DNA of 44,649 bases from Thermodesulfobacteriota bacterium (GTDB taxonomy: Bacteria; Desulfobacterota; Desulfobacteria; Desulfobacterales; C00003060): NCBI GenBank assembly GCA_034189385.1, contig JAXHVD010000030.1, forward strand, positions 1 to 44,649. Reading direction: 5' to 3'. The position numbers and the translations under genes were made by a program. Numbering within the stretch: position 1 is the stretch's first letter; every line of letters begins with the position of its first letter. This document shows, in pieces, positions 6,980 to 44,299 of this stretch. The notes beneath the pieces are model-generated. The model was not told where the DNA came from and searched no databases. It saw only the letters and a program-made list of their open reading frames with translations.

Positions 6980-7014
6980 CAAAAAAACCTGAATGAACCG
7001 CAGACAACCCATGT

Positions 7015-7293
7015 CTAAGACGTGCGCCTTTCCATTCGCTCATAGACCTCTTTGCGGTGAATAATGCCAAGGATGAGAATCTCGGTCTTGGATACCTTAA
7101 AAACGACACGATATTCTCCTACCCTTAGTTTCCAGTATCCTTTAAGGGTTCTTCGCAGGGGCTTTCCATAGACTTCAGGTCCGGTGGCAAGGCGTTCCTC
7201 CAAGGCTCTTTTGATCATGGACCTGTTTTTCTTGTCGATCTTCGGCAGATCCACCTTTTTCACATCAGGATGATAAACGAATCGAAAGGCCAT
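7015..7293 (-). CDS. RelE/ParE-family toxin (TA1)
   Basis: MAFRFVYHPDV...GKPLRRTLKGYWKLRVGEYRVVF...IIHRKEVY. Confidence 0.92.
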   Translation of the reverse strand: MAFRFVYHPDVKKVDLPKIDKKNRSMIKRALEERLATGPEVYGKPLRRTLKGYWKLRVGEYRVVFKVSKTEILILGIIHRKEVYERMERRTS

Positions 7294-7414
7294 GTTTTCG
7301 AGACCTCTATTGCACAACTCCTTCGAACGTTGATGATGGGCTTCTGCTCACGGAGCTCGGGAAATGGCTTGATGGCGCGACTCTGCTTCCTGAACGAACT
7401 TCTGATTCACCACA

Positions 7415-7642
7415 CTAGGACCACACCTCATCGTGAGCAAGCCCTTGGGATTTGTCCCACGTGCCTTCTCTTTCTTGGCCGAAAGAATTAAGAAAGATAT
7501 CTTCCTGAATTTCCATGGCTTCCTTGATCAGATCTCTGACCTTGGTGGACAGGGACACGCCGTCCTTCTCGGCCAGAAATTGGACCTGCTGATAAAGAGG
7601 AGCATCCAGCACCACATTGATCCTTGGATTCTTGGCAGGCAT
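7415..7642 (-). CDS. RHH-type antitoxin (TA1)
   Basis: MPAKNPRINVVLD...LSTKVRDLIKEAMEIQED...HDEVW; AAGGGAGG RBS; upstream of the RelE gene. Confidence 0.85.
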   Translation of the reverse strand: MPAKNPRINVVLDAPLYQQVQFLAEKDGVSLSTKVRDLIKEAMEIQEDIFLNSFGQEREGTWDKSQGLAHDEVWS

Positions 7643-7773
7643 CACCTTTATCCCTCCCTTGTAGTTCTTTGGAAAAAAGTGTAACACAAGTGACGCACCA
7701 GGTCAACCACTCAACGATTCAACCAATCGTCTGCGTATGTCCGCGAGAGTCCGCGGTTAATGAAAAAAAGCTG

Positions 7774-8156
7774 AATGAACCGCAGACAACGCAGACGGCC
7801 GCAGACATTTTGTCCGGTCGACGTGACCGGCCAAACCCCTCATCGCTTCGCGAAAGTCTTGTGAGAGGAAATGAGACTCAGTGGCATGGGACGGGTGTGA
7901 ATGTGGATGCCTGGAAAGGACTTACCAAGAGGCTGATACTAAATTTGCCCGAAGGGCACGGCGTGTATGTCGGCGACAAGCCTGCCCCGTGAAACACCTA
8001 TTTCACCGGGGCCTGCCCCGTGAAACGCCTATTTCACCGGGGCCTGCCCTGTGAAATGCAGAGCCTATTTCACTGGGGCTTGCCCCGTGAAACGCCTATT
8101 TCACTGGGGTCGTCGGCGGCATAGTCTGCGAGGGTCTGCGTCTGTCTGCGGTTAAT
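7774..8156. mobile_element. Family A element copy A2, with a nested family B array
   Basis: Same ends and internal hairpins as A1; four B hairpins inserted at 7980-8109. Confidence 0.85.
7980..8109 (+). repeat. Family B REP-like hairpin array (4 units)
   Basis: GCYTGCCCCGTGAAA-N5-9-TTTCACYGGGG units in tandem. Confidence 0.92.
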
Positions 8157-8167
8157 GAAAAGCCCTG

Positions 8168-8336
8168 AATGAACCCCTCATCGCTTCGCGAAACCCATGA
8201 GAGGAAATGAGACTCAGTGGCATGGGACGGGATGAGAATGTGGATGCCTGGAAAGGACAGATCAAGAGGCTGGTACTGAACTTGCCCGAAGGGCACGGCC
8301 ATAGTCTGCGAGAGTCTGCGAAGGTCTGCGGTTAAT
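8168..8336. mobile_element. Family A element copy A3 (internal deletion near the left end)
   Basis: AATGAAC joined directly to CCCTCATCGCTTCGCG; the remainder is near-identical to A2 and ends GCGGTTAAT. Confidence 0.8.
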
Positions 8337-8393
8337 GAAAAAAACCTCGCAACGCGTCAAGTAACCCCAAAACCCCAAAAGGGAGCGACCACA

Positions 8394-9410
8394 ATGCACA
8401 TCCTTGTTACAGGAGCAGCCGGTTTCATCGGCTTTCACGTGAGCAGACGTCTTTTGGAACAAGGCCATGAAGTCATCGGCCTGGACAGTCTGAACACCTA
8501 CTATGACGTGAGGCTAAAGGAGGCCCGCCTCAAGGAGCTGGCGCCCTTTGAGAGGTTCACCTTTACCAGACTGGATCTGGGCGACCGTGCGGGGATGGAG
8601 GCCCTTTTTGCCGACCATCATTTTGACCGGGTCATCCACCTTGCGGCCCAGGCCGGGGTAAGATACAGCCTCACCAACCCCCATGAATACGTGGAGAGCA
8701 ACGTGAAGGGGTTTCTGCACATCCTGGAAGGGTGCCGTCACTCCAAGGTGCCCCACCTGGTCTTTGCCTCCAGCAGTTCGGTCTACGGCATGAATACCAA
8801 GATGCCCTTTTCGGTGCACCACAACGTGGACCACCCCGTGAGCCTCTATGCGGCCACCAAGAAGGCCAACGAACTCATGGCCCACACATACAGCCACCTC
8901 TACGGCCTGCCCACGACGGGGCTGCGCTTTTTTACCGTATACGGACCCTGGGGCCGTCCCGACATGGCCCTATTCCTTTTCACCGAGGCCATCTTGGAGG
9001 GCCGTCCCATCAAGGTCTTTAACAAGGGCAACATGGAAAGGGACTTCACCTACATTGACGACATTGTCGAGGGCGTGGTGCGGGTCATGGACCATATTGC
9101 CCGGCCCAATGCCCAGTGGGACCCACAGGCCCCCGATCCCGGGTCCAGCCCCGGGCCCTATCGTCTTTACAACATCGGCAACAACACCCCTGTCCAACTC
9201 ATGGACTTTATCGAAGCCGTTGAGACCGCCCTGGGAAAGAAGGCAAAAAAGGAGTTCATGTCCATGCAGCCGGGAGACGTTCGTGCCACATTCGCCGATG
9301 TGGAAGACCTCAGCCAGGCCGTGGGCTTTAAGCCCCGGACCGCTCTAAGTGAAGGCATCGGCCGTTTTGTGGACTGGTACCTGGACTATTTCGGCCACCC
9401 CCGCCCCTGA
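8394..9410 (+). CDS. UDP-glucuronate 4-epimerase (NAD-dependent epimerase, CapI/Uge type)
   Basis: [33 protein letters not shown] and [14 protein letters not shown]. Confidence 0.95.
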
Positions 9411-9430
9411 TCCCGAAGAAGAAAAAGCTG

Positions 9431-9664
9431 AATGAACCGCAGACGGCCGCAGACGGCCGCAGACCGTTTGTCCGGTCGACGTGACCGGCCAAACCCCTTA
9501 TCGCTTCGCGAGAGTCTTGGGTTGAGGCTGGGTTCTATGATCCGGCATGGACTTTGGCAACCCTGCCCATGTTGATGGAAGGAAGTCGGGAAGAAGGCTG
9601 GTATTGGATTTGCCCGAAGGGCATGACCATAGTCTGCGTATGTCCGCGAGAGTCCGCGGTCAAT
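9431..9664. mobile_element. Family A element copy A4
   Basis: Same ends and hairpins; central region resembles A1. Confidence 0.85.
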
Positions 9665-9682
9665 GGAATCAATTCCTTTCTC

Positions 9683-9724
9683 TTGACGAAATAGCCTGTG
9701 TAAATTATAATGACCATTATAATT
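9683..9724 (+). promoter_or_regulatory. Sigma70 promoter with overlapping palindromic operator (TA2)
   Basis: TTGACG-17bp-TATAAT; perfect inverted repeat AATTATAATG-AC-CATTATAATT. Confidence 0.85.
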
Positions 9725-9741
9725 AGCAAGAGGGGAGGGTA

Positions 9742-10011
9742 ATGGCCGATTTTCAAGATATTCTACCTGTTACAAAGGTTAAGAGGGAGTTCCTGGATAT
9801 CCTCAGGGTCATGGAAGAGGAAGACTCCACCATCGCCCTGACCAGAAACGGGGAGGCCGTAGGGGTCATGATGACCCCGAGACGATATGAGGCCTTGCTG
9901 GAGACGATCGAGATTCTTGCCGATCAGGAGATATTGGCCACTTTGGAGAAATCTGCAAAGGACTTCGCGTCGGACAAGGTCTGCACCGATGAAGAGGTCT
10001 GGCAGGAGTAA
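9742..10011 (+). CDS. Phd/YefM-family antitoxin (TA2)
   Basis: ILPVTKVKREF...LTRNGEAVGVMM...YEALLETIEIL. Confidence 0.92.
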   Translation: MADFQDILPVTKVKREFLDILRVMEEEDSTIALTRNGEAVGVMMTPRRYEALLETIEILADQEILATLEKSAKDFASDKVCTDEEVWQE

Positions 10012-10292
10012 TGGCGTACAGACTCCTCTACTCCGAGGCTTCCCGTGAACAGATCAAAAATCTGCACCCTGAAATAAAGCCTCTTGTCAAATCCAGAGTA
10101 CAGAAACTCAAAGAGAATCCTTTTGCAGGACACAGCCTGGAAAGGGAGCTTTCAGGGTATCGGTCCCTCAGGGCCAAGCGCTTTCGGGTCATCTACAAGG
10201 TAAGGGAGCAAGATCAGGTTGTTGAGATCCACCACGTGGGCCACCGGAAAGACATCTACCAGCTATTCAAAGAGCAGGCAGAAAGGCCATAG
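10011..10292 (+). CDS. RelE/ParE-family toxin (TA2)
   Basis: LKENPFAGHSLERELSGYRSLRAKRFRVIY...VGHRKDIY; overlaps the antitoxin stop. Confidence 0.92.
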   Translation: MAYRLLYSEASREQIKNLHPEIKPLVKSRVQKLKENPFAGHSLERELSGYRSLRAKRFRVIYKVREQDQVVEIHHVGHRKDIYQLFKEQAERP

Positions 10293-10350
10293 ACCTGACT
10301 TGCCCAAAGGGGTGTGATGGTTCATTTGGCTATACTTCAACGATTAGGTC

Positions 10351-10399
10351 TTGACACAGGGGACTAGGATGGCCACAATATGTACAGGTTTACGTACAT
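10351..10399 (+). promoter_or_regulatory. Sigma70 promoter and YefM-type operator (TA3)
   Basis: TTGACA-17bp-CACAAT followed by ATGTAC-N8-GTACAT. Confidence 0.75.
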
Positions 10400-10400
10400 A

Positions 10401-10601
10401 GAGACCTTTGCACAACCCCTTCTCACTCGGTTCTGTGAGCTTTTTGACCCATCCTCGGCTTTGTTCACTAAACCGCAAAAACTCGGCTTAACAGCCTCAA
10501 ACAGTTTGCGATTTGCCCACTGAGGTGGGCCGCTCACCGCAGCTGGGTGGGTGCCCCAAAAAGCGCACAATGAGCGCTCGAAGGAGTTACGCAAAGGTCT
10601 C
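10401..10601. mobile_element. 201-bp MITE with 22-bp TIRs and 5-bp target duplication
   Basis: GAGACCTTTGCACAACCCCTTC versus reverse complement of the right end GAGACCTTTGCGTAACTCCTTC (19/22). ACATA on both sides (10396-10400 and 10602-10606). Confidence 0.92.
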
Positions 10602-10619
10602 ACATACTAGGGGGGTGCC

Positions 10620-10877
10620 ATGAATAAGTTGACGGCAACCGACGCACGACGGGACTTTTTTGAGATTGTCAAAGGTGCCGCTCAAAAGCACCAGGTATTT
10701 CGGATTCAACACCGCCATGGCTCTGTTGTTCTTCTTTCAGAAGACGAATACGATAGCCTGATTGAGACGCTGGAACTGCTTTCCATACCAGGTTTCCGGG
10801 AAAGTATGAAACGGTCAGCCGAGCAGGTCAAGAAGGGAGAAACGGTCTCTCTGGAAGACGCGCTTGGAGCTGATTGA
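10620..10877 (+). CDS. Phd/YefM-family antitoxin (TA3)
   Basis: LTATDARRDFF...VVLLSEDEYDSLIETLELLSIPG. Confidence 0.93.
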   Translation: MNKLTATDARRDFFEIVKGAAQKHQVFRIQHRHGSVVLLSEDEYDSLIETLELLSIPGFRESMKRSAEQVKKGETVSLEDALGAD

Positions 10878-11134
10878 TGGCGTTGTATGAAATCCGCTTT
10901 ACCAAAGAGGCTGTCAAAGATGTTGAAAAGCTCTCCCCGCGCCTGAAGAAGAAACTCAAAGAGATTGCCGTGAATCTGATCTCAGTAGAGCCTTATGCCG
11001 GGAAGAAGCTGGTGGGAGACCTGAAAGGTTTTTATTCGATACGGTTGACCTACAGAGATCGGATTGTCTACTCGGTTGATGAAGCCAACAAGACTGTCTA
11101 CGTCCATAGAGCCAGAACGCACTACGGTGAATAG
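10877..11134 (+). CDS. Txe/YoeB (RelE superfamily) toxin (TA3)
   Basis: YEIRFTKEAVKD...KKLVGDLKGFYSIRLTYRDRIVY...RARTHYGE. Confidence 0.9.
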   Translation: MALYEIRFTKEAVKDVEKLSPRLKKKLKEIAVNLISVEPYAGKKLVGDLKGFYSIRLTYRDRIVYSVDEANKTVYVHRARTHYGE

Positions 11135-11209
11135 TGAAAATGCCCTGGTTGTCATGGCAGCCGGAACCGGTCCGGCTTTTGTCCTTGCGCCACTGAGGAT
11201 GTAACCCTT

Positions 11210-11266
11210 TGACCAATCGACCACTTGACAACTCAACCAATCCACCAATCACCCATTTAGCCAATC
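11210..11266 (+). repeat. Degenerate octamer tract (ACCAATCA/ACCACTTG-like); other tracts at ~7702, 12701, 13365, 14430, 44410 and inverted at ~40590
   Basis: ACCAATCG ACCACTTG ACAACTCA ACCAATCC ACCAATCA CCCATTTA GCCAATCG. Confidence 0.85.
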
Positions 11267-11282
11267 GTCTGCCTTCGTCGGC

Positions 11283-11731
11283 GCCTGCCCCGTGCAATCC
11301 TATTTCACCGGGGTGTGCTTGCCCCGTGAAACGCCTATTTCACCGGGGCTTGCCCCGTGAAACGCCTATTTCACCGGGGTCTGTGTGTGTCTGTGGCTAA
11401 TCAATCTTCATTTCACTGGGGCCTGCCCCGTGAAACGTCTATTTCACCGGGGCTTGCCCCGTGAAACCCCTATTTCACTGGGGTGTGCTTGCCCCGCAGG
11501 TCCGGCAGATCCTACCGGGGCCTGCCCCGTGAAACGGCTATTTCACCGGGGTCGGTGTGTGCTTGCCCCGTGAAACGCCTATTTCACCGGGGCTTGCCCC
11601 GTGAAACGCCTATTTCACCGGGGTCGGTGTGTGCTTGCCCCGTGCAATCTTGCGCGTATCCTTTGGAGAGGTCTCCCCAGAGAGGATCATTTCACTGGGG
11701 CTTGCCCCGTGAAACGCCTATTTCACTGGGG
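11283..11731 (+). repeat. Family B REP-like hairpin array (11 units + 1 half)
   Basis: Co-oriented GCYTGCCCCGTGMAA...TTTCACYGGGG units with short GT-rich linkers. Confidence 0.93.
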
Positions 11732-11837
11732 TCTGTGGCTAAACCCAATTCTCGTCACTTGTCACTGACCAGGTCAAGGACCACAAGGAGGCCTTCGGCG
11801 ATTGAAATAGTAGTTGGCTCAGAAGAATGGTTTGCCC

Positions 11838-11884
11838 TTGACAACAAATCTATCCGGTTGCATAATGGTTTCAAATTGAAACCA
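11838..11884 (+). promoter_or_regulatory. Sigma70 promoter with palindromic operator (TA4)
   Basis: TTGACA-17bp-CATAAT; TGGTTTCAA-A-TTGAAACCA. Confidence 0.85.
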
Positions 11885-11899
11885 ACTGGAGGTATTTAT

Positions 11900-12142
11900 A
11901 TGGCAACGGTAACGGTAAAGAATATACCAAATGAGCTTTACGACCGCCTCAAGTCAGTCGCAGAAATAAATCGGCGCTCCATAAATAGCGAGATTATCAT
12001 GTGCATTGAAAATGCTGTTATAAGTCGCCGAATAAATCTCGACGAGGTGCTTGAGAATGCACGCCAGCTCCGTCAATTGACAGCCGGACATCTAATCAGT
12101 GATGATGAATTCAACAAGGCTAAAACAGAAGGTAGGCTATGA
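11900..12142 (+). CDS. Arc/FitA-like RHH antitoxin (TA4)
   Basis: MATVTVKNIPNELYDRLKSVAEINRRSINSEII; GGAGGT RBS. Confidence 0.92.
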   Translation: MATVTVKNIPNELYDRLKSVAEINRRSINSEIIMCIENAVISRRINLDEVLENARQLRQLTAGHLISDDEFNKAKTEGRL

Positions 12143-12540
12143 TTGTGGTTGATACAAATGTTATTGGCTATCTCTTCCTATCAAGCGAGCAATCCATTTT
12201 AGCCGAACGTGCCCTACAAAAGGACAAGGAATGGGCAGCACCGATGTTATGGCGTAGCGAATTTCGCAATGTCCTAACTCTTTATATAGGAAAAGATATC
12301 ATCAAGTTGGAGCAAGCTCAGCAGATAATGAATAGTGCGTTGGAATTACTAAGGGGTCGAGAATATGAGGTTCCATCATATGAAGTTTTACGGCTTGCCT
12401 CAACAAGCAATTGTTCTGCTTATGATTGTGAATTTATCGCCACGGCAAAGGACCTGAAAGTCCCTTTAGTAACTGTTGATAGGCAGTTGCTGCGTGAGTT
12501 TTCTTCAGTGGCAATATCATTAAATTCGTACAGCGAATAA
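12139..12540 (+). CDS. vapC: VapC PIN-domain toxin (TA4)
   Basis: MIVVDTNV...WRSEFRN...SAYDCEF...LVTVD, retaining the PIN acidic residues. Confidence 0.93.
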   Translation: MIVVDTNVIGYLFLSSEQSILAERALQKDKEWAAPMLWRSEFRNVLTLYIGKDIIKLEQAQQIMNSALELLRGREYEVPSYEVLRLASTSNCSAYDCEFIATAKDLKVPLVTVDRQLLREFSSVAISLNSYSE

Positions 12541-12793
12541 TTATAAGGCAGTGCACCAGCCGACCTGTCACTGTCCTTGTCCGCAAAACGCTGGCGCCTT
12601 TGCGTCAAGTGAGTTGTTCGTTCGCCCACATCGAAGAACTTGGGACTGAAAAAAGGAGGAGGTATGGCACAAGCGGCTGAGTCTGATGAATTGATCGCAA
12701 ACGATTCAACCATTTAACCACTTAACGACTCAACCAATACCCCATTCAACTATTTGACAAAACAGCCAATGATTGTATTGAGGAGGTCACTAG

Positions 12794-13057
12794 ATGCTTA
12801 TTGAATATGTTAATAAAGCTATGAGTAAGGCGGTTTACGATAAACTGGACGATGGTACTTTTTCGGGCAAGATCCCGCAGTGTCCTGGTGTCGTCGCCTT
12901 TGGAGAATCATTCTTTCAGTGCGAGCAAGCATTGAGATCCTCCCTTGAAGGATGGCTCATTGTAAAAATTAGGCATGGAGATCAATTGCCGGTCATAGGC
13001 AAGATCAATTTAAACAAAAAAATGCCTGTTCTTGAAGGCGCTACTGCCCATGGGTAA
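12794..13057 (+). CDS. hicB: HicB-family antitoxin (TA5)
   Basis: AVYDKLDDGTFSGKIPQCPGVVAFG...LRSSLEGW. Confidence 0.88.
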   Translation: MLIEYVNKAMSKAVYDKLDDGTFSGKIPQCPGVVAFGESFFQCEQALRSSLEGWLIVKIRHGDQLPVIGKINLNKKMPVLEGATAHG

Positions 13058-13190
13058 ATGGAAGCCATGCAAACGAAGAGATTTCATCAAAAAACTCAAG
13101 AATCTCGGTTTCGGATCACCTGAACCGGGCGGCCGGCATTTCTATCATGACTCGTCACTGACCATTTGTGGCTTAACACCTAAGACGTAA
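13050..13190 (+). pseudogene. hicA: Truncated HicA toxin (TA5)
   Basis: MGKWKPCKRRDFIKKLKNLGFGSPEPGGRHFY, then runs into a repeat tract at ~13150 and stops after 46 codons. Confidence 0.85.
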
Positions 13191-13202
13191 CACCTAAAAC
13201 GT
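13150..13202 (+). repeat. Heptamer composite (TCGTCAC)n-TGACCATTTGTGGC-(TAACACC/TAAGACG)n; also at ~11751, 13507, 13577, 14990, and related at 42134
   Basis: Near-identical CTCGTCACTGACCATTTGTGGCTTAACACCTAAGACGTAACAC at 13151 and 14997. Confidence 0.85.
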
Positions 13203-13226
13203 GGATCAGATTCCCAGCCCTGCCGT

Positions 13227-13339
13227 CCACTCTGTTTTACGCCATAGGCGTAGGCCGGGGCCGGTGGAATCAGGAAACCCTGATTCTTCCGGCAGTTGTT
13301 GCCGTTTGTCTGCGTGAGTCGGCGTGTGTCTGCGGTTAA
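13227..13339. repeat. Family A variant right half, duplicated at 14670-14760
   Basis: CCACTCTGTTTTACGCC-NNN-GGCGTAGG...GAATCAGGAAACCCTGATTC...GTCTGCG present in both places. Confidence 0.8.
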
Positions 13340-13412
13340 GGGAAAAGATTCCAATGTTGTTCATCCCAATCAACCATTTGACAAAACAGCCAATCATTTG
13401 GCGTTCATCCGC

Positions 13413-13477
13413 GCTTGCCCCGTGCAATCCTATTTCACCGGGGTGCGCCTGCCCCGTGAAACCCTATTTCACCGGGG
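13413..13477 (+). repeat. Family B hairpins (2 units)
   Basis: Two GCYTGCCCCGTG...TTTCACCGGGG units. Confidence 0.9.
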
Positions 13478-13628
13478 TCCGTGTGGGTCTGTGGCTAAAC
13501 CCAAATCTCGTCACTCGTCACTGACCATTTGTGGCCTAACACGTAAAACCCAAACACCTAAATCGGTTCCCGGACTGGTGACTTGTCACTGATCATTGGT
13601 AACTTAACATGTAAAACCTGTAAGAAGC

Positions 13629-13657
13629 TTGACAATTAGTAACGTAAGTGTTACCAT
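13629..13657 (+). promoter_or_regulatory. Sigma70 promoter with operator (TA6)
   Basis: TTGACA-17bp-TACCAT; GTAAC-N6-GTTAC. Confidence 0.75.
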
Positions 13658-13675
13658 CTGGCCATATGTCTCATG

Positions 13676-14005
13676 ATGATAGAGGTAAAAGAGTACGTAG
13701 ACGAGACTGGCAAATCTCCTTTTTCCATTTGGTTCAACCACTTGGAGGCAATAGCGGCTGGGAAGGTTTCAACGGCACTATATCGGATGGAGCAAGGAAA
13801 TTTTTCAAATGCAAAGGGCGTTGGTGAAGGGGTTTTAGAATACAAGATTGATTTTGGGCCTGGCTATAGACTCTATTTTGGAAAAGAGGGTGCCAACATG
13901 GTGATTATCCTGGGTGGGGGAACAAAGAAAGGCCAACAAAAGGATATCTCTACTGCAAAGGCATACTGAAAGCATTATAAGGCCCGGAAACGTCATAGCA
14001 CCTGA
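13676..14005 (+). pseudogene. RelE/HigB-like addiction-module toxin (TA6) with a probable premature TGA at 13967-13969
   Basis: KEYVDETGKSPF...GEGVLEYKIDFGPGYRLYFG...GGGTKK; reads AKAY*KHYKARKRHST* where the family has a conserved W. Confidence 0.8.
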
Positions 14006-14014
14006 GGTGTTACC

Positions 14015-14365
14015 ATGTCTTTAACAAGAGATTTTCGGGAAACGATACAGGACCGAGCCCAAAAGGACCCTGCTTTTCGTAAGGCCATGCTAGCCGAGGC
14101 GATCGACGCCTTCTTATCGGGCCATGTGGAAACGGGGAAGGCTATGTTGCGGGATTATATAAATGCTACTATTGGCTTTGAAACACTCAGCAAGAAGATC
14201 CAGAAACCGAGCAAAAGCCTTCACCGTATGCTAAGCCCTGCAGGAAATCCGAATACAAACAACTTTTTCAGGATCCTGCATTATTTGCAGAGCAATGAAG
14301 GTGTGGAACTCGTCGTCACTGCCCGTCAGGCTCAAGATACTGCCGTCCGTGACATTGCGCCCTAA
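14015..14365 (+). CDS. HTH antitoxin / transcriptional regulator (TA6)
   Basis: MSLTRDFRETI...LRDYINATIGF...KSLHRMLSPAGNP. Confidence 0.88.
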   Translation: MSLTRDFRETIQDRAQKDPAFRKAMLAEAIDAFLSGHVETGKAMLRDYINATIGFETLSKKIQKPSKSLHRMLSPAGNPNTNNFFRILHYLQSNEGVELVVTARQAQDTAVRDIAP

Positions 14366-14399
14366 AACCTGGTTGGAGATTTCATCCAAATCCGGCCAG

Positions 14400-14960
14400 G
14401 CCTGTCCAGTGAAATGCAAGGCCGATTTCACCATTCGACCACTTAACGATTCAACCAATACCCCAATCAACTATTTGACAAAACAGCCAATCATTTGCCG
14501 TTCATCCGTGCTTGCCCCGTGCAATCCTATTTCACCGGGGCCTGCCCTGTGAAATGCAGTGCGTATTGTTTGCAGATGTCACCGGTTAGAGAATTATTTC
14601 ACCGGGGTCGTCGGCGCCATAGTCTGCGTTCGTCCGCGAGAGTCTGCGGTTAATCTGTCTCTAAGGCTTCCACTCTGTTTTACGCCGAAGGCGTAGGCAG
14701 GGGCCGGTGGAATCAGGAAACCCTGATTCTTCAGGCAGTTATTGCTGTTCGTCTGCGTGTGCCTGCCCCGTGAAACCCTATTTCACCGGGGCTTGCCCCG
14801 TGCAATCTTGCGCGTATCCTTTGGAGAGGTCTCCCCAGAGAGGATCATTTCACTGGGGCTTGCCCCGTGCAATCCTATTTCACTGGGGTCTGTGTGGGTC
14901 TGTGGCTAATCAATCTTCATTTCACTGGGGCTTGCCCCGTGCAATCCTATTTCACTGGGG
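14400..14960 (+). repeat. Composite of family B hairpins (~7), an octamer tract and family A right ends
   Basis: B units at ~14400, 14510-14607 and 14761-14960; an A right end ending GCGGTTAAT at 14654. Confidence 0.88.
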
Positions 14961-15316
14961 TCCGTGTGGGTCTGTGGCTAATCAGAAATCTCGTCACTCG
15001 TCACTGACCATTTGTGGCTTAACACCTAAGACGTAACACGAATCACCCTAACCCAACCACTAAAACGGTCTATCGGTATTTGACCGACGCATCTACCCAA
15101 CACTGTCCCCATTTTGTCTCGGGAAGTGAGATTCCCAACATACTCATCAATAGTAACTTGTTATAAATGCAACTTGTCCATTTTTACCCACAAATTCGTA
15201 TGAGGATCCAATGGAGGATTTCGCAACAGGCCTTGTGACCTGACGACACTTTTGTCCAAAAGGCAATTTGGTAGGTGCCCGGAGAGGTTTCAGGAAGCAC
15301 GAAAGGAAATCTGCTG

Positions 15317-27189: not shown

Positions 27190-28112
27190 TGGGGATAGAC
27201 CAACAGGATATTTACATTCACATCGGTTTGCACAAGACCGGCTCGACCTTTCTCCAGAGACATCTCTTCTCGAGACTTGATGTGAACAGAATCATCACGC
27301 CGAGAGTTGACTATGTTGCAGCGAGTGAGCCCTTTGACCCCCGTGTTTTTCAAGAGATCTTGGTGTCGCAAGGCAATTTTGACGGCCGCGACACCACCCT
27401 GATCAGTCAGGAGACGCTCAGCGGGCGCGGTGACGGGAATCCCGTTTGGGACCGCAATACGATAGCCCAAAGGTTGGCCCACACCTTTCCCAGGGCAAGA
27501 ATCATCCTTGTCTTGAGGAATCAGTTTGACTATATCCTTTCTCTCTATACTTTCCGCGTGATCAGGCGGGGTCTTGAGCGGCGCAGTCTCAGAAGTTATC
27601 TCCGTGATTACTGCGATTCCAGACTGAAGCCCAAGCTGAAGTATGATGAGCTCGTCCAGCGGTATGTTTCTCTCTTCGGGCAGGAGAATGTGCTCGTCCT
27701 CCCCTACGAGTTTCTCGCAAGAGACAGGGTGGCCTACATCCAGAGTATACTCTCCTTCATGTCCATCGGAAACGCCATCGATGTGCCCGATATCAGAGTG
27801 AACAGGAGCTCACGGTCCAGGACCTTGCTGTGGATGAATAGGAGCCTGAATATCCCCGTTTCGCTGTTCATGGATGCCATGGCATCTACGGGCGTGATCA
27901 GCCAGAGGCAACACACCACGCTCGCCTATCATTATTTCAGGATAAAGAGGCCCGTCAACCGGAAGCTGATGAGCTGCTTGGCGAGGGAATCGGCTCCCCT
28001 GCAGTTTGACGGGAAATGGCGGGTGCGTCTGCGTCGTGTTTTCAGGGATGGAAACAGGAGCCTGAGCCGCCTGACTGGCATAGACTTTTCCGATTACGGA
28101 GATCCTGTCTAG
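27189..28112 (+). CDS. Sulfotransferase family protein
   Basis: HIGLHKTGSTFLQ, ISQETLS and LVLRNQFDYILSLY. Confidence 0.85.
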   Translation: MGIDQQDIYIHIGLHKTGSTFLQRHLFSRLDVNRIITPRVDYVAASEPFDPRVFQEILVSQGNFDGRDTTLISQETLSGRGDGNPVWDRNTIAQRLAHTFPRARIILVLRNQFDYILSLYTFRVIRRGLERRSLRSYLRDYCDSRLKPKLKYDELVQRYVSLFGQENVLVLPYEFLARDRVAYIQSILSFMSIGNAIDVPDIRVNRSSRSRTLLWMNRSLNIPVSLFMDAMASTGVISQRQHTTLAYHYFRIKRPVNRKLMSCLARESAPLQFDGKWRVRLRRVFRDGNRSLSRLTGIDFSDYGDPV

Positions 28113-38549: not shown

Positions 38550-39317
38550 TTGACAGATAGGCTCAAGATACTGGATTTCTGGGCAGACCCCCTGACCAGG
38601 GCCGAATGCCTGGAAAAGGTGAGCGGCTATCTCGAGGAGGACGGGGGGGTTCATACCATTTTTGCCGTTAATCCGGAGAAGAACTTCGCGGCCCGCAAAG
38701 ATGGGGCCTTGCAACATACACTGGAATCGGCGGACCTTCTGATACCCGATGGAATCGGGGTGGTGCTGGCTGCGAGAATACTTTACGGCGCAAGGCTGTC
38801 CCGCGTCCCGGGCGTAGAGTTTATGGAAGCCATCTGTGCCCTGGCTGCAAAGGGGGGGTACAAGGTCTTTTTCTATGGCGCAAGGGAAGAGGTGAACAAG
38901 CAGGCCGTGGAGATACTGAGGGGCCGTTATCCTGGTTTAAATATTGTGGGCAGGTCAAACGGGTATGTGAAAGAAGAAGAGATGGCGTCTCTTGTAAAAA
39001 AGATCAATGCCTCCGGGGCCGAGGTCCTTTTTTTAGCCCTGGGATCGCCCAAGCAGGAGAATTGGATTTCCGCCTACAAGGATGCCCTCAAGACCGTGAG
39101 GGTGTGTCAGGGCATAGGGGGCACACTGGATACGATCGCAGGCCGTGTGAAACGGGCGCCAAAGATCTGGTGCCGGTTGTCAGCCGAATGGCTGTACCGA
39201 CTCCTCTCAGAGCCCAGAAGGATCAAACGTCAGAAGGTGCTGCCAATCTTTGCGGTGATGGTTGTCCTCGCAAAGCTCAGACAAGGGGCAACAAGAACAA
39301 CCCTAGAAAACCGTTGA
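38550..39317 (+). CDS. WecG/TagA/CpsF-family glycosyltransferase (GT26)
   Basis: VNPEK, PDGIGVV, RVPG, LGSPKQE and EWLYRL. Confidence 0.94.
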   Translation: MTDRLKILDFWADPLTRAECLEKVSGYLEEDGGVHTIFAVNPEKNFAARKDGALQHTLESADLLIPDGIGVVLAARILYGARLSRVPGVEFMEAICALAAKGGYKVFFYGAREEVNKQAVEILRGRYPGLNIVGRSNGYVKEEEMASLVKKINASGAEVLFLALGSPKQENWISAYKDALKTVRVCQGIGGTLDTIAGRVKRAPKIWCRLSAEWLYRLLSEPRRIKRQKVLPIFAVMVVLAKLRQGATRTTLENR

Positions 39318-39348
39318 ACCGCAGACGAACGCAGACAACCGCAGACAC

Positions 39349-39791
39349 TTTTTACCCAATTCAGCTCAAGGCACTTTTGGGTAAAAAACGAACAAGGTGG
39401 CATCCACGAACCCAATAGGCCGCCCCGAGCCGCCTGACACTTTTTACCCATTTCAGCTCAAAGCACTTTTGGGTAAAAAACGAACAAGGTGGCATCCACG
39501 AACCTAATTGGCCGTCCCGAGCCGCCCATAGACTTTTACCCAAATCAGCTCAAGGCAGTTTTGGGTAAAAACAGCCTTGTTTGGCCGCACGTCCCAACCA
39601 GTAGGATCATTTTCTGACCCAGACCGCGGAGCGGAACGAAAGACGGTACTGTTATGAAACAACTCACGCAGAAGCTAAAAACCGGCAATATGCGCGTCCT
39701 TGAAGTTCCCATTCCCAAACCGACCCCGAAGGGCATGAGCCTCCAACCATCACTTTTACCCAAATCAGCTCAAGGCACTTTTGGGTAAAAA
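39349..39791 (+). repeat. Family C hairpin direct repeats C1-C4
   Basis: TTTTACCCAWWTCAGCTCAARGCASTTTTGGGTAAAA at ~39349, 39441, 39534 and 39754. Confidence 0.95.
39654..39788 (+). pseudogene. N-terminal fragment of a polysaccharide-locus bi-domain oxidoreductase (Zn-ADH + Gfo/Idh/MocA type)
   Basis: MKQLTQKLKTGNMRVLEVPIP, then runs into repeat C4 and stops; recognised from memory of the family N-terminus. Confidence 0.65.
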
Positions 39792-39841
39792 GATGGTGGT
39801 TCAATGGCTGATTTCGCGGACCCAAGATGACATTAGGCTGC

Positions 39842-40186
39842 TCAGGATGGCTTTTGGGGCGACCTCCTTGTGGCATGGCCTTTCTTTATTTCTCTTAGAT
39901 CGGTGACATCGAACGTATATGCTCTTCCGATTTTGTAACCGGGAACTCGGCCGTCTTTCACCCATCGTCTCAAGGTTACAGATGACACGCCGAGATACTC
40001 GGACGCCTCTTTTAGGTTGAAAGGCTTTGCTGCAATTTCATTTTGCCAAGCTTCTATGTCCAGGATCTCAGGGGCGTCCTTGGCGTGGCCCTTTATCCCA
40101 AAGTCCACAATATGGCGAGCAACCTTTTCTCTTTCTTCTATTGGAAGAAGGTACATGTCTCTGATGACCTTTTCTGCCGTTAGCAT
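39842..40186 (-). CDS. Excisionase-like HTH DNA-binding protein, putative antitoxin (TA7)
   Basis: FNLKEASEYLGVSSVTLRRWVKDGRVPGYKIGRAYTF. Confidence 0.85.
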   Translation of the reverse strand: MLTAEKVIRDMYLLPIEEREKVARHIVDFGIKGHAKDAPEILDIEAWQNEIAAKPFNLKEASEYLGVSSVTLRRWVKDGRVPGYKIGRAYTFDVTDLREIKKGHATRRSPQKPS

Positions 40187-40187
40187 T

Positions 40188-40466
40188 TCAGCCTCCGATT
40201 TCCCGCAGGTATCGTCAGATTCTTGTAAAAGTTCTCATGTGGGCCAACCTGATAAAGGACGAGAGCATCGTCTTCGATTCTATAAGCCATCAACGTCAAT
40301 TGGCGGCCCATTGTAAACTTGTGAACCCTTCCAGGTCCCCTGCTTTGTGCTCACCGACTCCGGGGTCTGCGAGAACGTCTTCCACCGCATCTAAGATAAC
40401 CTGCTGAAACTGTCGTGGAAGCTTCTTTACGTACCTTTTGAACCGTGGCATCTGAAAGAGTTTCAC
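40188..40466 (-). pseudogene. Frameshifted RelE/ParE-like toxin (TA7)
   Basis: Three frames give MKLFQMPRFKRYVKKL...DPGVGEHKAGDLEGF / HKFTMGRQLTLMAY...VGPHENFYKNL / RYLREIGG*. Confidence 0.85.
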
Positions 40467-40716
40467 AATCCATTCTTATCATACCTTGTCAAATATAGGG
40501 CTCTTTTTTTCGAATCCCAGGCTCCTAGTACGCAAACCGAGCGGGGCAGTGATGATTGTCTTGGAAAAGCTAAGGGAGTGGTGGATTCGTCAAACAGTTG
40601 ATTGGTTAATTGGTCAAATGGTGGTGGTGGGTTGATTAGTCAAATGGCTGAATCGCTAAAGGAGTGACCTGACAGCCGCAGCCAGAAGACATTTTCGAAA
40701 CGCACCCCCCCGGTAC

Positions 40717-40930
40717 TTTTTACCCAAATCAGCTCAAGGCACTTTTGGGTAAAAAGTGAGAAGCCCACGGCCTCATCCCGTCGCCGACAGCCCTTGGACG
40801 CCCCACACTTTTTACCCAAATCAGCTCAAAGCACTTTTGGGTAAAAAAAGAGGAAGCATACAGCCACATATCCACCCGGCCCCACAGAGACTTTTTACCC
40901 ATTTCAGCTCAAGGCTGTTTTGGGTAAAAA
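40717..40930 (+). repeat. Family C hairpin direct repeats C5-C7
   Basis: Copies at ~40717, 40809 and 40892, separated by unique spacers. Confidence 0.95.
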
Positions 40931-40962
40931 GGTATAGTCGCATCTAGGTTTCTGCCGCCACC

Positions 40963-41886
40963 ATGGACCCCATAGACCTAATCAGAGACGGCAAGATCCG
41001 TCGATACTTCCGGGCGACAAAGAAGTTCAACGTCCCTAACCTGGTATCTCACATCACCCAGAGGGCAGCCGGGAAAGAACCATCGTTTTTGGAAGACAGT
41101 GATTATCTGACCATGTTGGGGCTCCTGAAAGAAATCGCCGAGAATTACTCGCTAAGAATGTTTGCCTTTTGTCTCATGCCAAACCATGTTCATTTGTTGT
41201 TTAGCCCAACGGAAGCGAACCTTTACGATGCCATGCGGGACTTATTTTCGAGATATGCCACGCGATTCAACAGGAAATACGAGAGAAAAGGCCATCTGTT
41301 TGGCGGGCCGTACAGACAAGCCGTATGTCTCGACGACAGCTATCTTCTGGCCGCTTCACTCTATATCCACCAGAATCCAGTGAGGGCGGGGCTGGCGAGA
41401 GACCCTTTGAAGTACCGGTGGTCGACATGCAGATTGTTTTGTGAACCTGGTGCTCCCAAGTCTTTTGTAGATTCTCATTTCATTTTGAGATTGCTTTCCA
41501 AGGGAGAGGTTTCAAGAGAAGAAGAATACCGGCGGCTCCTGAAACAGGGGGGCGAGTTGGAAACAGGGCATGTCATCGAACAGGAAGATGCCATAGAACG
41601 TTTCCGCTCAAAGCTTACAACCATGTTTCCTTCGGTTTTTAAGCGAATTGCTAATAAAAGGCAGATTGCCGCATTTTCGGCCATAGACTTACTCGACATA
41701 GGAGAATTGGAAAAGCAGCTTGAAGCAATGAGGACGGCCAAATTTCCCAACAAACCAGAGAGCAGAAAAGCCAAAAAGCATCTCATCGAACAGCTTATTG
41801 CCCGTGGCTACAATCGTGGCGAGATTGCGGAACGACTCTGCATTTCCAGGAAAAGCGTTTACAACATCCTGAATTCCCCCATGTGA
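40963..41886 (+). CDS. REP-associated tyrosine transposase (RAYT, Y1 HUH) with C-terminal HTH extension
   Basis: HITQR, FCLMPNHVHLL (HUH), GHLFGGPY, YIHQNPVRAG (catalytic Tyr), YRWST; C-terminal GEIAERLCISRKSVYNIL. Confidence 0.92.
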   Translation: MDPIDLIRDGKIRRYFRATKKFNVPNLVSHITQRAAGKEPSFLEDSDYLTMLGLLKEIAENYSLRMFAFCLMPNHVHLLFSPTEANLYDAMRDLFSRYATRFNRKYERKGHLFGGPYRQAVCLDDSYLLAASLYIHQNPVRAGLARDPLKYRWSTCRLFCEPGAPKSFVDSHFILRLLSKGEVSREEEYRRLLKQGGELETGHVIEQEDAIERFRSKLTTMFPSVFKRIANKRQIAAFSAIDLLDIGELEKQLEAMRTAKFPNKPESRKAKKHLIEQLIARGYNRGEIAERLCISRKSVYNILNSPM

Positions 41887-41901
41887 ACAGCACATCCGGA
41901 C

Positions 41902-42034
41902 TTACCCAATTCAGCTCAAAGCACTTTTGGGTAAAAAACGTTGAAGTTGAATTCCCGCTTGCACGGGCAGAGAGTCAGCCAGACCCTGGACAGACGTTTT
42001 ACCCAAATGAGCTCAAGGCTGTTTTGGGTAAAAA
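41902..42034 (+). repeat. Family C hairpin direct repeats C8-C9
   Basis: Copies at ~41902 and 41997. Confidence 0.95.
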
Positions 42035-42187
42035 CATGGTGGCTCAGCGGCTGATTTCACGGACCTTGGGTACCACCTCAGGGCCCCGAGTATTGGCACA
42101 AGGTTGTGCATGATTCACGCCCCTGTGAAGTCCCTAAAACGTGAAACTTGACCCCCAACACTTAAAACCTAACACCAGGTGAAAAAC

Positions 42188-43279
42188 ATGAAAGCATTTC
42201 TTGTGGCGGGCGCCAGGCCCAATTTTATGAAGATCGCGCCGGTGTACCGGGAGGCCCTGAAGCATGAGCAGGTGCAGTGCAAGATCGTGCACACGGGTCA
42301 ACACTACGACTATGAAATGTCAGAGGCCTTTTTTAAGGACCTCGACATTCCGGAGCCCGACTTTTTCTTAAACGCCGGCTCAGGGTCCCATGCCGTCCAG
42401 ACTGCCAAGATCATGGTGGCCTTTGAAGAGCTCTGCGACAAGGAAAGGCCCGATGTGGTCATTGTGGTGGGCGACGTGAACTCCACTTTGGCATGCAGTG
42501 TGGTGGCCAAGAAGTCGCTCATTAAAGTGGCCCATGTAGAGGCGGGCCTAAGAAGCTTTGATCTTGCCATGCCCGAAGAGATCAATCGGATGGTGACAGA
42601 TGTGCTTTCAGACTATTTTTTCGTCACCGAAGAAAGTGGTAAAGAGAATCTCCTCAAAGAGGGTAAGGGCAAAGAGAGGATCCATTTTGTAGGCCATGTG
42701 ATGATCGACAACTTGCTCCACCAGGCCAAGAGGCTTGATGAGAAGACGATTAAAGAATTTGCTACCTACCATCTCAAGAAAGAACACAATGGCTTCGCTT
42801 TTCTGACCCTGCACCGTCCTTCAAACGTAGACACAAAAGCCGCCTTTTCCGAGATTGCAGGGGCCTTGAATGAGATTGCCGAAGAAAGAGCAATCTTTTT
42901 TCCGGTCCATCCGAGAACTGCGAAGATGATGAAGCAATTTGAAATCAAGCTTTCAGAAGACATCGTACTCCTTTCTCCCCTGGGCTTTAAGGAGTCGCTC
43001 TTTTTATGGAAAGACGCCGCCGTGGTCCTGACCGATAGCGGCGGATTGCAGGAGGAGACGACGGCCCTGGGCGTGCCCTGCGTGACGCTCAGGGAGAACA
43101 CGGAACGGCCCATCACCATTGAGATGGGAACCAATGTCTTGGGGGGTACCAAAAAGGGGTCTATTCTCAAGGCCTACAGAGAGAGTATGGCAAGAGACCG
43201 GACAAAGTGTACAGTGCCCCCCAAGTGGGATGGCAGGGCGGCCGAGCGTATATGGAAAGTTTTACTCGATAAAGCGTGA
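42188..43279 (+). CDS. wecB: UDP-N-acetylglucosamine 2-epimerase (non-hydrolysing)
   Basis: GARPNFMK, HTGQHYD, HVEAGLRS, TDSGGLQEE and TERP. Confidence 0.96.
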   Translation: MKAFLVAGARPNFMKIAPVYREALKHEQVQCKIVHTGQHYDYEMSEAFFKDLDIPEPDFFLNAGSGSHAVQTAKIMVAFEELCDKERPDVVIVVGDVNSTLACSVVAKKSLIKVAHVEAGLRSFDLAMPEEINRMVTDVLSDYFFVTEESGKENLLKEGKGKERIHFVGHVMIDNLLHQAKRLDEKTIKEFATYHLKKEHNGFAFLTLHRPSNVDTKAAFSEIAGALNEIAEERAIFFPVHPRTAKMMKQFEIKLSEDIVLLSPLGFKESLFLWKDAAVVLTDSGGLQEETTALGVPCVTLRENTERPITIEMGTNVLGGTKKGSILKAYRESMARDRTKCTVPPKWDGRAAERIWKVLLDKA

Positions 43280-43782: not shown

Positions 43783-44049
43783 TCAGCCTCTGCCAAGTGC
43801 GGCCTTTTCTTGTGAGACTCTTTCGTGGAGCCAGACCTTGATCAAGGCCCCACGGTCAACGCCAATTCTTGTCCTTATGCGGTCAATCTCTTTGACAAGC
43901 TCTTCTGCTACGTCAAGGGTAATGCGGACCTTCTTCCCATGCCGCACGACCTTAGCTTTGGAGAGGTCAATTAGGTCGTGGATGTCCTCGCCATTGTCGA
44001 ACCGCCGATCAAACTCCTTAGTATTCTTAGCTAGTTTCTTTTTGGCCAT
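43783..44049 (-). CDS. BrnA-like CopG/RHH antitoxin (TA8)
   Basis: KEFDRRFDNGEDI...RITLDV...GVDRGALIKVWLHER. Confidence 0.85.
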   Translation of the reverse strand: MAKKKLAKNTKEFDRRFDNGEDIHDLIDLSKAKVVRHGKKVRITLDVAEELVKEIDRIRTRIGVDRGALIKVWLHERVSQEKAALGRG

Positions 44050-44299
44050 AGAGCCCCCTTTCACGTTTTCTGGCGCGTCTTACAGATATGATACGGGTAG
44101 TTTCTCCGCGCATGGTGAAGATGGCTGTCCACAACTTTTTGCCGATTTCTCCTATCATGATTCCCCTGTCTTCAAGGGGATAAGAAGCATGTACCGCAAC
44201 CCTGTTGCCCTCTTTCCACAAATCCGTAGCTGTCTCAAAATCGATTCCGTGCTTTGCTTTGTTACGGAGGCTTTTGGTCTCACCTCACTCAAATTTCAT
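44027..44299 (-). pseudogene. brnT: BrnT toxin with a nonsense codon at position 5 (TA8)
   Basis: MKFE*GETKSLRNKAKHGIDF...RIISVRRARKRE; the family consensus start is FEWD. Confidence 0.88.

Follow-up and report, generated by a model that had tools for sequence, protein, structure and literature searches.

The closest described relatives of the locus considered here are the subclass 2.1 TnpA-Y1 proteins surveyed by Quentin et al. 2018 (PMC6006769), the TIRtrons of Di Nocera et al. 2013 (PMC3733652) and the E. coli REPtron with its enzyme TnpA-REP (subclass 2.2) and its bacterial interspersed mosaic elements (BIMEs; PMC3333891, PMC8266576). Subclass 2.1 is tentatively equated with TIRYTs and with group 1 of the RAYTs, the tyrosine transposases associated with repetitive extragenic palindromic (REP) sequences. 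It is the largest RAYT group, present in 14.9% of species, and is expected to carry a C-terminal helix-turn-helix (HTH) tail resembling HTH_23, HTH_28 or Bac_DnaA_C; REP-like sequences were not found near its genes in that survey (PMC6006769). A diversifying role for cyanobacterial subclass 2.1 enzymes has been proposed and then qualified (bioRxiv 10.1101/2020.03.09.984088). The present locus lies in a 44,649-bp contig of a Thermodesulfobacteriota bacterium, JAXHVD010000030.1 (the window), where the gene for a Y1 HUH transposase stands within an array of short, co-oriented hairpins. It is best read as a variant of the REPtron and TIRtron kind, with the presumed workings of a REPtron but without the hallmarks of canonical REPs, and not as a CRISPR array. 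We think it probable that a subclass 2.1-like Y1 HUH gene is here flanked by its own low-copy, strand-polar hairpin lacking a GTAG foot, which would be the substrate of the enzyme and would be copied locally with variable flanks.

The protein matches Y1_Tnp (PF01797) with an E value of 2e-10. Its motifs are NHVH at residues 74–77 (H75, H77), YIHQNP at 134–139 (Y134) and WS (W153, S154), the last two reading YIHLNP and WSS in the consensus of aligned homologues, and H75, H77, Y134, N138 and P139 are invariant in 22/22 of these. A HTH_7/HTH_23-like tail spans residues 268–304 with scores just under the Pfam cut-offs (HTH_7 E 8e-5, HTH_23 E 4e-4), and precomputed domains assign PF13384/PF02796 to most homologues. 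Judged by motif, on the features of Table 1 in PMC6006769 rather than on the profiles or clustering of its authors, the protein appears to be TnpA-Y1 subclass 2.1-like (group 1 RAYT/TIRYT): it has the NHVH/NH[YF]H type of HuH motif, Y-x-x-x-NP, a serine motif after the core and the C-terminal HTH. The 59-aa spacing from HuH to Tyr, the deltaproteobacterial prevalence and the one or two divergent copies per genome are likewise shared with the subclass. The HTH, which an earlier note on this DNA had singled out as an extra feature, is therefore present and at the same time not distinctive, being a described mark of subclass 2.1 (PMC6006769). Named homologous loci come mostly from Desulfobacterota/Deltaproteobacteria assemblies, and 1293 proteins, possibly including distant members, match at E 1e-20 or better.

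An insertion sequence of the IS200/IS605 type was considered and rejected. The Y1 HUH core is common to IS608, ISDra2 and the present enzyme, as is a possible lagging-strand-template bias. Here, however, the motif is of class 2 (YIHQNP, that is Y-x-x-x-NP and not Y-x-x-x-Q), the same hairpin stands at both ends, and the gene occurs in only one or two divergent copies per genome with no near-identical copies in 61 related genomes, which is unlike an insertion sequence. A sequence search of solved structures returned only weak matches to the ISDra2 transposase, and Foldseek found nothing under E 0.001 with a poor structure model (pLDDT 63.5).

The array and the transposase gene are located between wecG and a gene for UDP-GlcNAc epimerase, in a polysaccharide locus that occupies the end of the window according to an open reading frame (ORF) scan (Table 1). 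There are nine hairpins (C1 to C9), all on the + strand and all with a CAA loop. The nine co-oriented copies of the earlier note, there given as about 38 bp, are real and measure 37 bp. Each copy folds as a hairpin, with energies of −6.7 to −13.2 kcal/mol under DNA parameters, and the short units repeat with a period of 83–97 bp. The hairpin profile has no match in 457,607 shuffled bases and the reversed pattern none in the 61 genomes, so the family is not a product of chance. Within the window the copies are confined to at most 1.6 kb from the transposase gene, as had been noted. This does not extend to the genome (G000, 90% complete), in which three further intact single hairpins (contigs G000:C5, G000:C19 and G000:C26), one degenerate copy (G000:C12) and one copy split by an insertion (G000:C56) were found. 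No sigma-70 promoter was found in the array.

The pairing of gene and hairpin is directly observed across the family. Among 131 fetched loci, 112 had at least 48% identity and were collapsed to 87 at 95% DNA identity. With a profile refined on family loci (the window-only profile alone already recovered most genome loci), the hairpin is present at 84/87 of these, in 351 copies, and has no match in shuffled loci. Of the 78 loci with sufficient flanking sequence, 59 have it at most 100 bp upstream of the gene and 62 at most 60 bp downstream. Two of 19 more divergent loci match the profile. Four at 40–44% identity have diverged palindromes of their own at the same places, as do L029 and L205 (the homologues together spanning 40–53%), while in distant locus L063 no palindrome was found at the places flanking the gene. 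The hairpin consensus also tracks the protein tree (Spearman 0.38; 0/300 permutations; 72 loci), which is not proof of co-evolution because kin share labels, and genome G034 has two transposase homologues, each with a different hairpin.

The pattern occurs in 36/61 genomes, including all 11 with a close homologue, at 0–46 matches per genome. Outside the genus, 9 and 11 copies were counted in the two genomes with the gene, against 0–2 in each of the remaining 22. The homologues thus carry the cognate arrays that the earlier note proposed to look for, with clusters that are mostly co-oriented. As to its worry that the hairpin family might be scattered genome-wide independently of the RAYT, the hairpin is, like a REP family, also found away from the gene, at low copy number. 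Cognate palindromic repeats therefore flank a low-copy Y1 gene and also lie elsewhere, as in a REPtron or TIRtron in the broad sense. The features of a canonical REPtron (RAYT groups 2 and 3) are lacking, as there is neither a GT[AG]G foot nor a set of high-copy inverted REP pairs.

The polarity of the array is given by its T/T internal loop, which lies on the coding strand of the gene, as direct counts show. Read on this strand, a 3x3 zone midway along the stem carries T/T in 227 of the 351 copies, paired bases in 109 and A/A in 3. The central 13 bp invert independently, 33 of the T/T copies having a reversed loop. The layout is head-to-tail and not that of REPIN-type inverted pairs: scored by loop, 205 adjacent pairs point in the same direction, 49 in opposite directions and 13 are unclear. 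On gene-free contigs, 15/15 multi-copy regions have a single polarity, and the T/T strand is the G-rich strand in 16/19 gene-free regions. It would be the lagging-strand template, which is the strand used by IS608-type enzymes (PMC3333891).

No GTAG or GT[AG]G consensus was found within 12 bases on either side of the hairpin. The dinucleotide AC, said by the earlier note to precede nearly all hairpins, does stand immediately 5' of the T-run in 8/9 window copies (ACG at C9); family-wide this is true of only 39/317. A C precedes the 5' T-run in 156/317 hairpins, compared with 68/317 at the other foot and 268/917 controls, a preference that hints at a C^T site such as is cut by E. coli TnpA-REP. 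Covariation among the nine window copies is nil. Compensatory stem pairs appear only across homologues (positions 8/30: CG 231, GC 93) and do not discriminate recognition of a hairpin from that of a palindromic duplex. As a separate observation, two further families of small palindromes, of CCCCGT[GT]AAA type and CCGCC...GGCGG type, repeatedly interrupt the hairpin centre just 3' of the CAA loop, as if this were a hot spot for nested insertion (L062, L061, L077, L091, L115, L014, L017, L048, L081, L085, L180 and G000:C56:3928-3992).

The short spacers of the window, 46–60 bp in length, are reiterated linkers, which is again a direct observation. The spacers C1-C2 and C2-C3 (type A) share 87% identity, the first 32 bp behind C4 are a copy of those behind C9, and both types of linker recur in relatives; the spacers are not mostly unique as had been supposed. 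In L059, whose protein is 96% identical, there is one upstream hairpin, and type A replaces the type B linker that follows the gene in the window. Homology between the two loci ends at the 5' foot of C7 and the 3' foot of C8 and resumes at C9, with a whole linker differing between. Seven hairpins, with other linkers, lie upstream in the orthologous array L060, and in a contig of run X5 the C6-C7 unit occupies the place after the transposase, making a third linker there. Whole short units are therefore gained, lost and swapped between close relatives, as the earlier note had proposed for its units. Across the family, a flank is shared with another hairpin of the same locus on the 5' side in 74/424 cases and on the 3' side in 67/424, compared with 0 and 3 of 1500 cross-locus pairs. 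These shared flanks include duplicated 3' ends of upstream genes (wecG in L060, glycosyltransferases in L061 and L169) and, in L192, a copy of the transposase gene's start. Joints between repeats in the contigs of four DNA runs have a short side of 27–36 letters, too short to show excision.

The long intervals consist of local gene pieces and toxin–antitoxin (TA) genes. Contents were as the earlier note had stated, namely a gene fragment (C3-C4), a TA module (C4-C5) and the RAYT (C7-C8), except that the ParE-like toxin of the module is frameshifted. The fragment in C3-C4 was named through a similar relic that follows a hairpin in G008; a 30-aa query found no intact bi-domain oxidoreductase gene in G000. 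Matches of 29–34 bp make a relic of the wecG 3' end in C4-C5 only possible, and a contig of the run holding the stretch matches C4-C5 with no differences. An 84% copy of the ParE-like gene in L059 has no hairpin within about 900 bp on its right. Across loci, long intervals hold TA genes and whole polysaccharide genes or fragments.

We infer all of the catalytic steps that would link these observations, and the mechanism so proposed is the BIME diversification and amplification model of PMC3333891, in which capture of flanking genes or fragments is predicted. The enzyme would bind the hairpin as folded single-stranded DNA, the T/T strand being the active one and probably exposed as the lagging-strand template. 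It would nick at sites of low specificity at or near the foot and further away, a C^T at the 5' foot being one possible site; the E. coli enzyme TnpA-REP cuts at C^T over distances from the REP that reach 400 nt or more (PMC3333891). Rejoining of strands would then move or copy hairpins with flanks of variable length, mostly in cis or nearby, and strand specificity would maintain their co-orientation. Whole linkers may subsequently be gained, lost and swapped as the 37-bp direct repeats recombine, through the enzyme or through the host. The array would be a side effect of hairpins being amplified locally in a TA-rich polysaccharide locus and not a memory of foreign DNA. Mobility of the hairpin is indicated by lineage-specific single copies: those of contigs G000:C5 and G000:C19 are missing at the orthologous place in 3/3 and 15/15 relatives, respectively (70–84% identical, exact empty sites not being alignable).

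Several results weigh against this account. Hairpin feet show no significant excess of non-homologous junctions (14/96) over random sites (19/194; p 0.24), there is no clean target consensus at junctions, and breaks between close loci coincide with hairpins in 27/48 non-independent pairs against 25.2 expected, a crude, upward-biased and conservative expectation. Loops are opposite in 49/254 scored adjacent pairs, the bias towards the G-rich strand is confounded with gene direction, and the outlying hairpin copies of G000 itself give mixed strand signs. Hairpins also occur in 25/50 searched genomes without a close homologue, although these assemblies are incomplete. A fixed TTAC target, suggested by the pair L009/L134, was rejected after it failed in other flank homologues among the matches listed. 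Two further observations concern single copies. Near 27362 of G000:C26 a single hairpin lies, by eye, between two diverged copies of a segment of about 110 bp, and the G000:C5 hairpin stands beside a repeat of about 225 bp with long terminal inverted arms (L230:470-705), of which there are at least 14 other genome copies and many in the genus.

Compared with the subclass 2.1 survey, in which no REP-like sequences were found near the genes, the conserved hairpin beside nearly every gene is the main difference (PMC6006769); the repeat was not found in two text supplements of that paper. TIRtrons share a tyrosine transposase gene closely flanked by GTAG-less, partly self-complementary repeats, and moderately abundant repeat families in dimers or clusters (PMC3733652). 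Their layout is that of L029, L037, L038 and L205, where the two flanking copies form a near-perfect inverted repeat. Most loci, the window among them, have direct and polar copies instead, and there is no GGGGWSAS motif as in the TIRtrons described; the distinction between direct and inverted is blurred because the repeats are self-complementary. Elsewhere in this genome, L006 (G000:C46, 779-2164) holds a second long Y1 transposase, a 362-aa open frame, whose perfect terminal inverted repeats are 21 bp long and, on the right, lie in three tandem units of 119 bp, the form of a classical TIRtron with local amplification. Like the window, the E. coli REPtron and its BIMEs have a long, imperfect hairpin whose stem contains a zone of mismatches, and they also share reiterated linkers, local amplification and the predicted capture of flanking gene fragments; stem mismatch is needed for group 2 activity, and Marinomonas REPs likewise cluster beside their gene (PMC3333891, PMC8266576). 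Differences are the missing GTAG foot, the lack of alternating inverted pairs, the low number of matches per genome where E. coli has hundreds, and an extra tail of about 150 aa that carries the HTH. The literature covered, with subscription journals, Figure 9 of PMC3733652 and two supplements outside its scope, holds no description of the repeat or of co-oriented arrays at subclass 2.1 genes.

The alternative that survives best is an integron-like cassette system, in which the hairpin is a site for site-specific recombination made strand-selective by its T/T loop. The HUH enzyme would then cut out and insert segments running exactly from hairpin to hairpin, and so gather TA and defence genes. 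The strand selectivity of attC sites works through unpaired bases, and integron arrays have co-oriented, strand-asymmetric folded sites, with TA genes between them as in some relatives here. The exchange of a whole linker between the feet of C7 and C8 and the next hairpin in L059, and the third linker of run X5, are in keeping with such a system. The best case is G034, where 5/5 long non-transposase intervals of L169 hold a TA pair and a fixed 60-bp hairpin doublet recurs between them; in L172 the YhcG, Fic and AbiEii genes are each followed by a hairpin unit of about 145 bp. By hand count in 24 loci, with outside ORFs of up to 260 aa, the stretches between hairpins (20 TA modules in 56.4 kb) have about 2.3 times the TA density of the DNA outside them (about 19 in 125.7 kb), so the loci are TA-rich throughout.

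Against cassettes, a comparison of 177 intervals, which sampled distant relatives, found hairpins on either side in a further locus only for intervals of 135 bp or less, and copies of TA cargo at 84–98% identity occur where such borders are lacking. Exact borders in two contexts, expected of integron cargo, are thus seen here only for short linkers, and the suggestion of the earlier note that hairpin-to-hairpin segments behave as cassettes finds no support here for long cargo. Intervals often contain truncated or whole polysaccharide genes, including pieces of host operons, breakpoints are not enriched at hairpins, the larger TA cluster at 7–13 kb of the window has no hairpin of the array type, and no excision joint was found in the contigs of the run holding the stretch (contigs only). 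The enzyme is moreover of the HUH type and not a tyrosine recombinase like IntI. An integron-like system is unlikely, and it keeps some standing because short spacers are swapped after the gene and one relative has five hairpin-separated TA pairs.

Less probable still is that the hairpins are mainly double-stranded operator or structural sites, for example for autoregulation through the HTH, in arrays that arose by replication slippage and RecA recombination with no nuclease. The site is palindromic, an HTH is present in the protein, position varies least for the hairpins closest to the gene, and the tandem linkers and the change from T/T to paired variants may be compatible with slippage and template switching. 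However, the catalytic HUH and Tyr residues are invariant, single copies lie at unrelated, lineage-specific sites, and uniform polarity in gene-free clusters would be unexpected for an operator.

Despite a repeat with dyad symmetry and a regular short-unit period, the proposal that the units form a CRISPR-like array, transcribed and processed into guides of captured foreign DNA, is largely refuted and very improbable: spacers are reiterated linkers or local host DNA, genes interrupt the array, blastn of 39387-40965 against phages and plasmids gave only matches of E 0.4–0.5 (the ParE gene at E 0.4), own-genome matches of spacers are short, lie within genes and are taken as chance, the hairpin pattern has 0 exact matches in 2.9 million viral contigs, no cas1 was found in G000 (90% complete) and no cas genes among the scanned window ORFs, and Rfam has no family for the array (one miRNA match of E 0.08 is taken as chance). 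A CRISPR-like role for RAYTs is only speculated on in PMC5581495.

Features of the array region are collected in Table 1. Some other repeats and TA genes were observed in the window and in relatives. Degenerate 8-mer tandem repeats (ATTGGTTA-like) occupy 40575-40660, inside C4-C5, and occur also in L059. A TGAACCGCAGAC-type repeat stands 3' of polysaccharide genes (6743, 6994, 7776, 9433, 39315 and 43674), 6/7 of its genome matches being in the window. A second TA cluster at 7000-15050 holds two ParE and two Phd genes, FitA/PIN, UPF0150 and small genes of unknown kind, with CCCCGT[GT]AAA palindromes scattered among them; this motif has 41/77 of its genome matches in the window, and no Y1 locus of G000 carries it nearby. 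A BrnT/CopG-type TA pair (43783-44221) lies 3' of an exact duplication of 69 bp (43287 and 43678) and of palindromic units of 30 bp in tandem. In L171, L172, L187 and L188 of G034, all transposase-free contigs, the unit of about 145 bp consists of about 65 bp of flank, the hairpin and about 43 bp of flank, and recurs between single defence or TA genes.

Table 1. Features of the hairpin array and its flanks in window coordinates.
Feature	Position	Strand	Basis or remark
wecG/tagA glycosyltransferase, left host flank	38550..39317	+	domain search
Hairpin C1	39350..39386	+	pattern search
Type A linker, two 55-bp copies flanking C2	39387..39533	+	in relatives: after the transposase (L059), elsewhere in the array (L060)
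Hairpin C2	39442..39478	+	pattern search
Hairpin C3	39534..39570	+	pattern search
C3-C4 interval: start of a bi-domain oxidoreductase gene (first ~30 codons, from 39654) with the region upstream of it	39571..39753	+	ends near C4 foot
Hairpin C4	39754..39790	+	pattern search
32-bp copy (84%) of post-C9 flank (42034-42065)	39791..39822	+	sequence comparison
HTH_17/excisionase-like protein, probable antitoxin	39842..40186	-	domain search
ParE-like toxin gene in two pieces (40296-40466, 40180-40311)	40180..40482	-	domain search
Hairpin C5	40718..40754	+	pattern search
Linkers C5-C6 (55 bp) and C6-C7 (46 bp)	40755..40892	+	sequence comparison
Hairpin C6	40810..40846	+	pattern search
Hairpin C7	40893..40929	+	33 bp 5' of start codon; position conserved among homologues
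Y1 HUH transposase (RAYT/TnpA-Y1), 307 aa	40963..41886	+	between C7 and C8
Hairpin C8	41900..41936	+	13 bp 3' of stop codon; position conserved among homologues
Type B linker, 60 bp	41937..41996	+	four related copies in orthologous array L060; type A instead in L059
Hairpin C9	41997..42033	+	pattern search
UDP-GlcNAc 2-epimerase, right host flank	42179..43279	+	domain search

With a REPtron/TIRtron-type element as the preferred reading, the largest RAYT subclass, for which PMC6006769 had identified no hairpin substrate, gains a defined candidate substrate as well as natural pairs of protein and hairpin. The T/T strand is predicted to be the active one and C^T at the 5' foot is the candidate nick, so that the activity of the enzyme and the purpose of its HTH tail become directly testable. 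There is also a slim chance that the element is an HUH counterpart of integrons. Acting in the surface-polysaccharide loci of sulfate-reducer-like bacteria, it would cut out, rearrange and accumulate TA and defence modules as well as fragments of polysaccharide genes. The five hairpin-separated TA pairs around the transposase gene of G034 would then be its mature form, and exact hairpin-to-hairpin exchange, if true, would offer a new route to cassette arrays and a small tool for editing single-stranded DNA.

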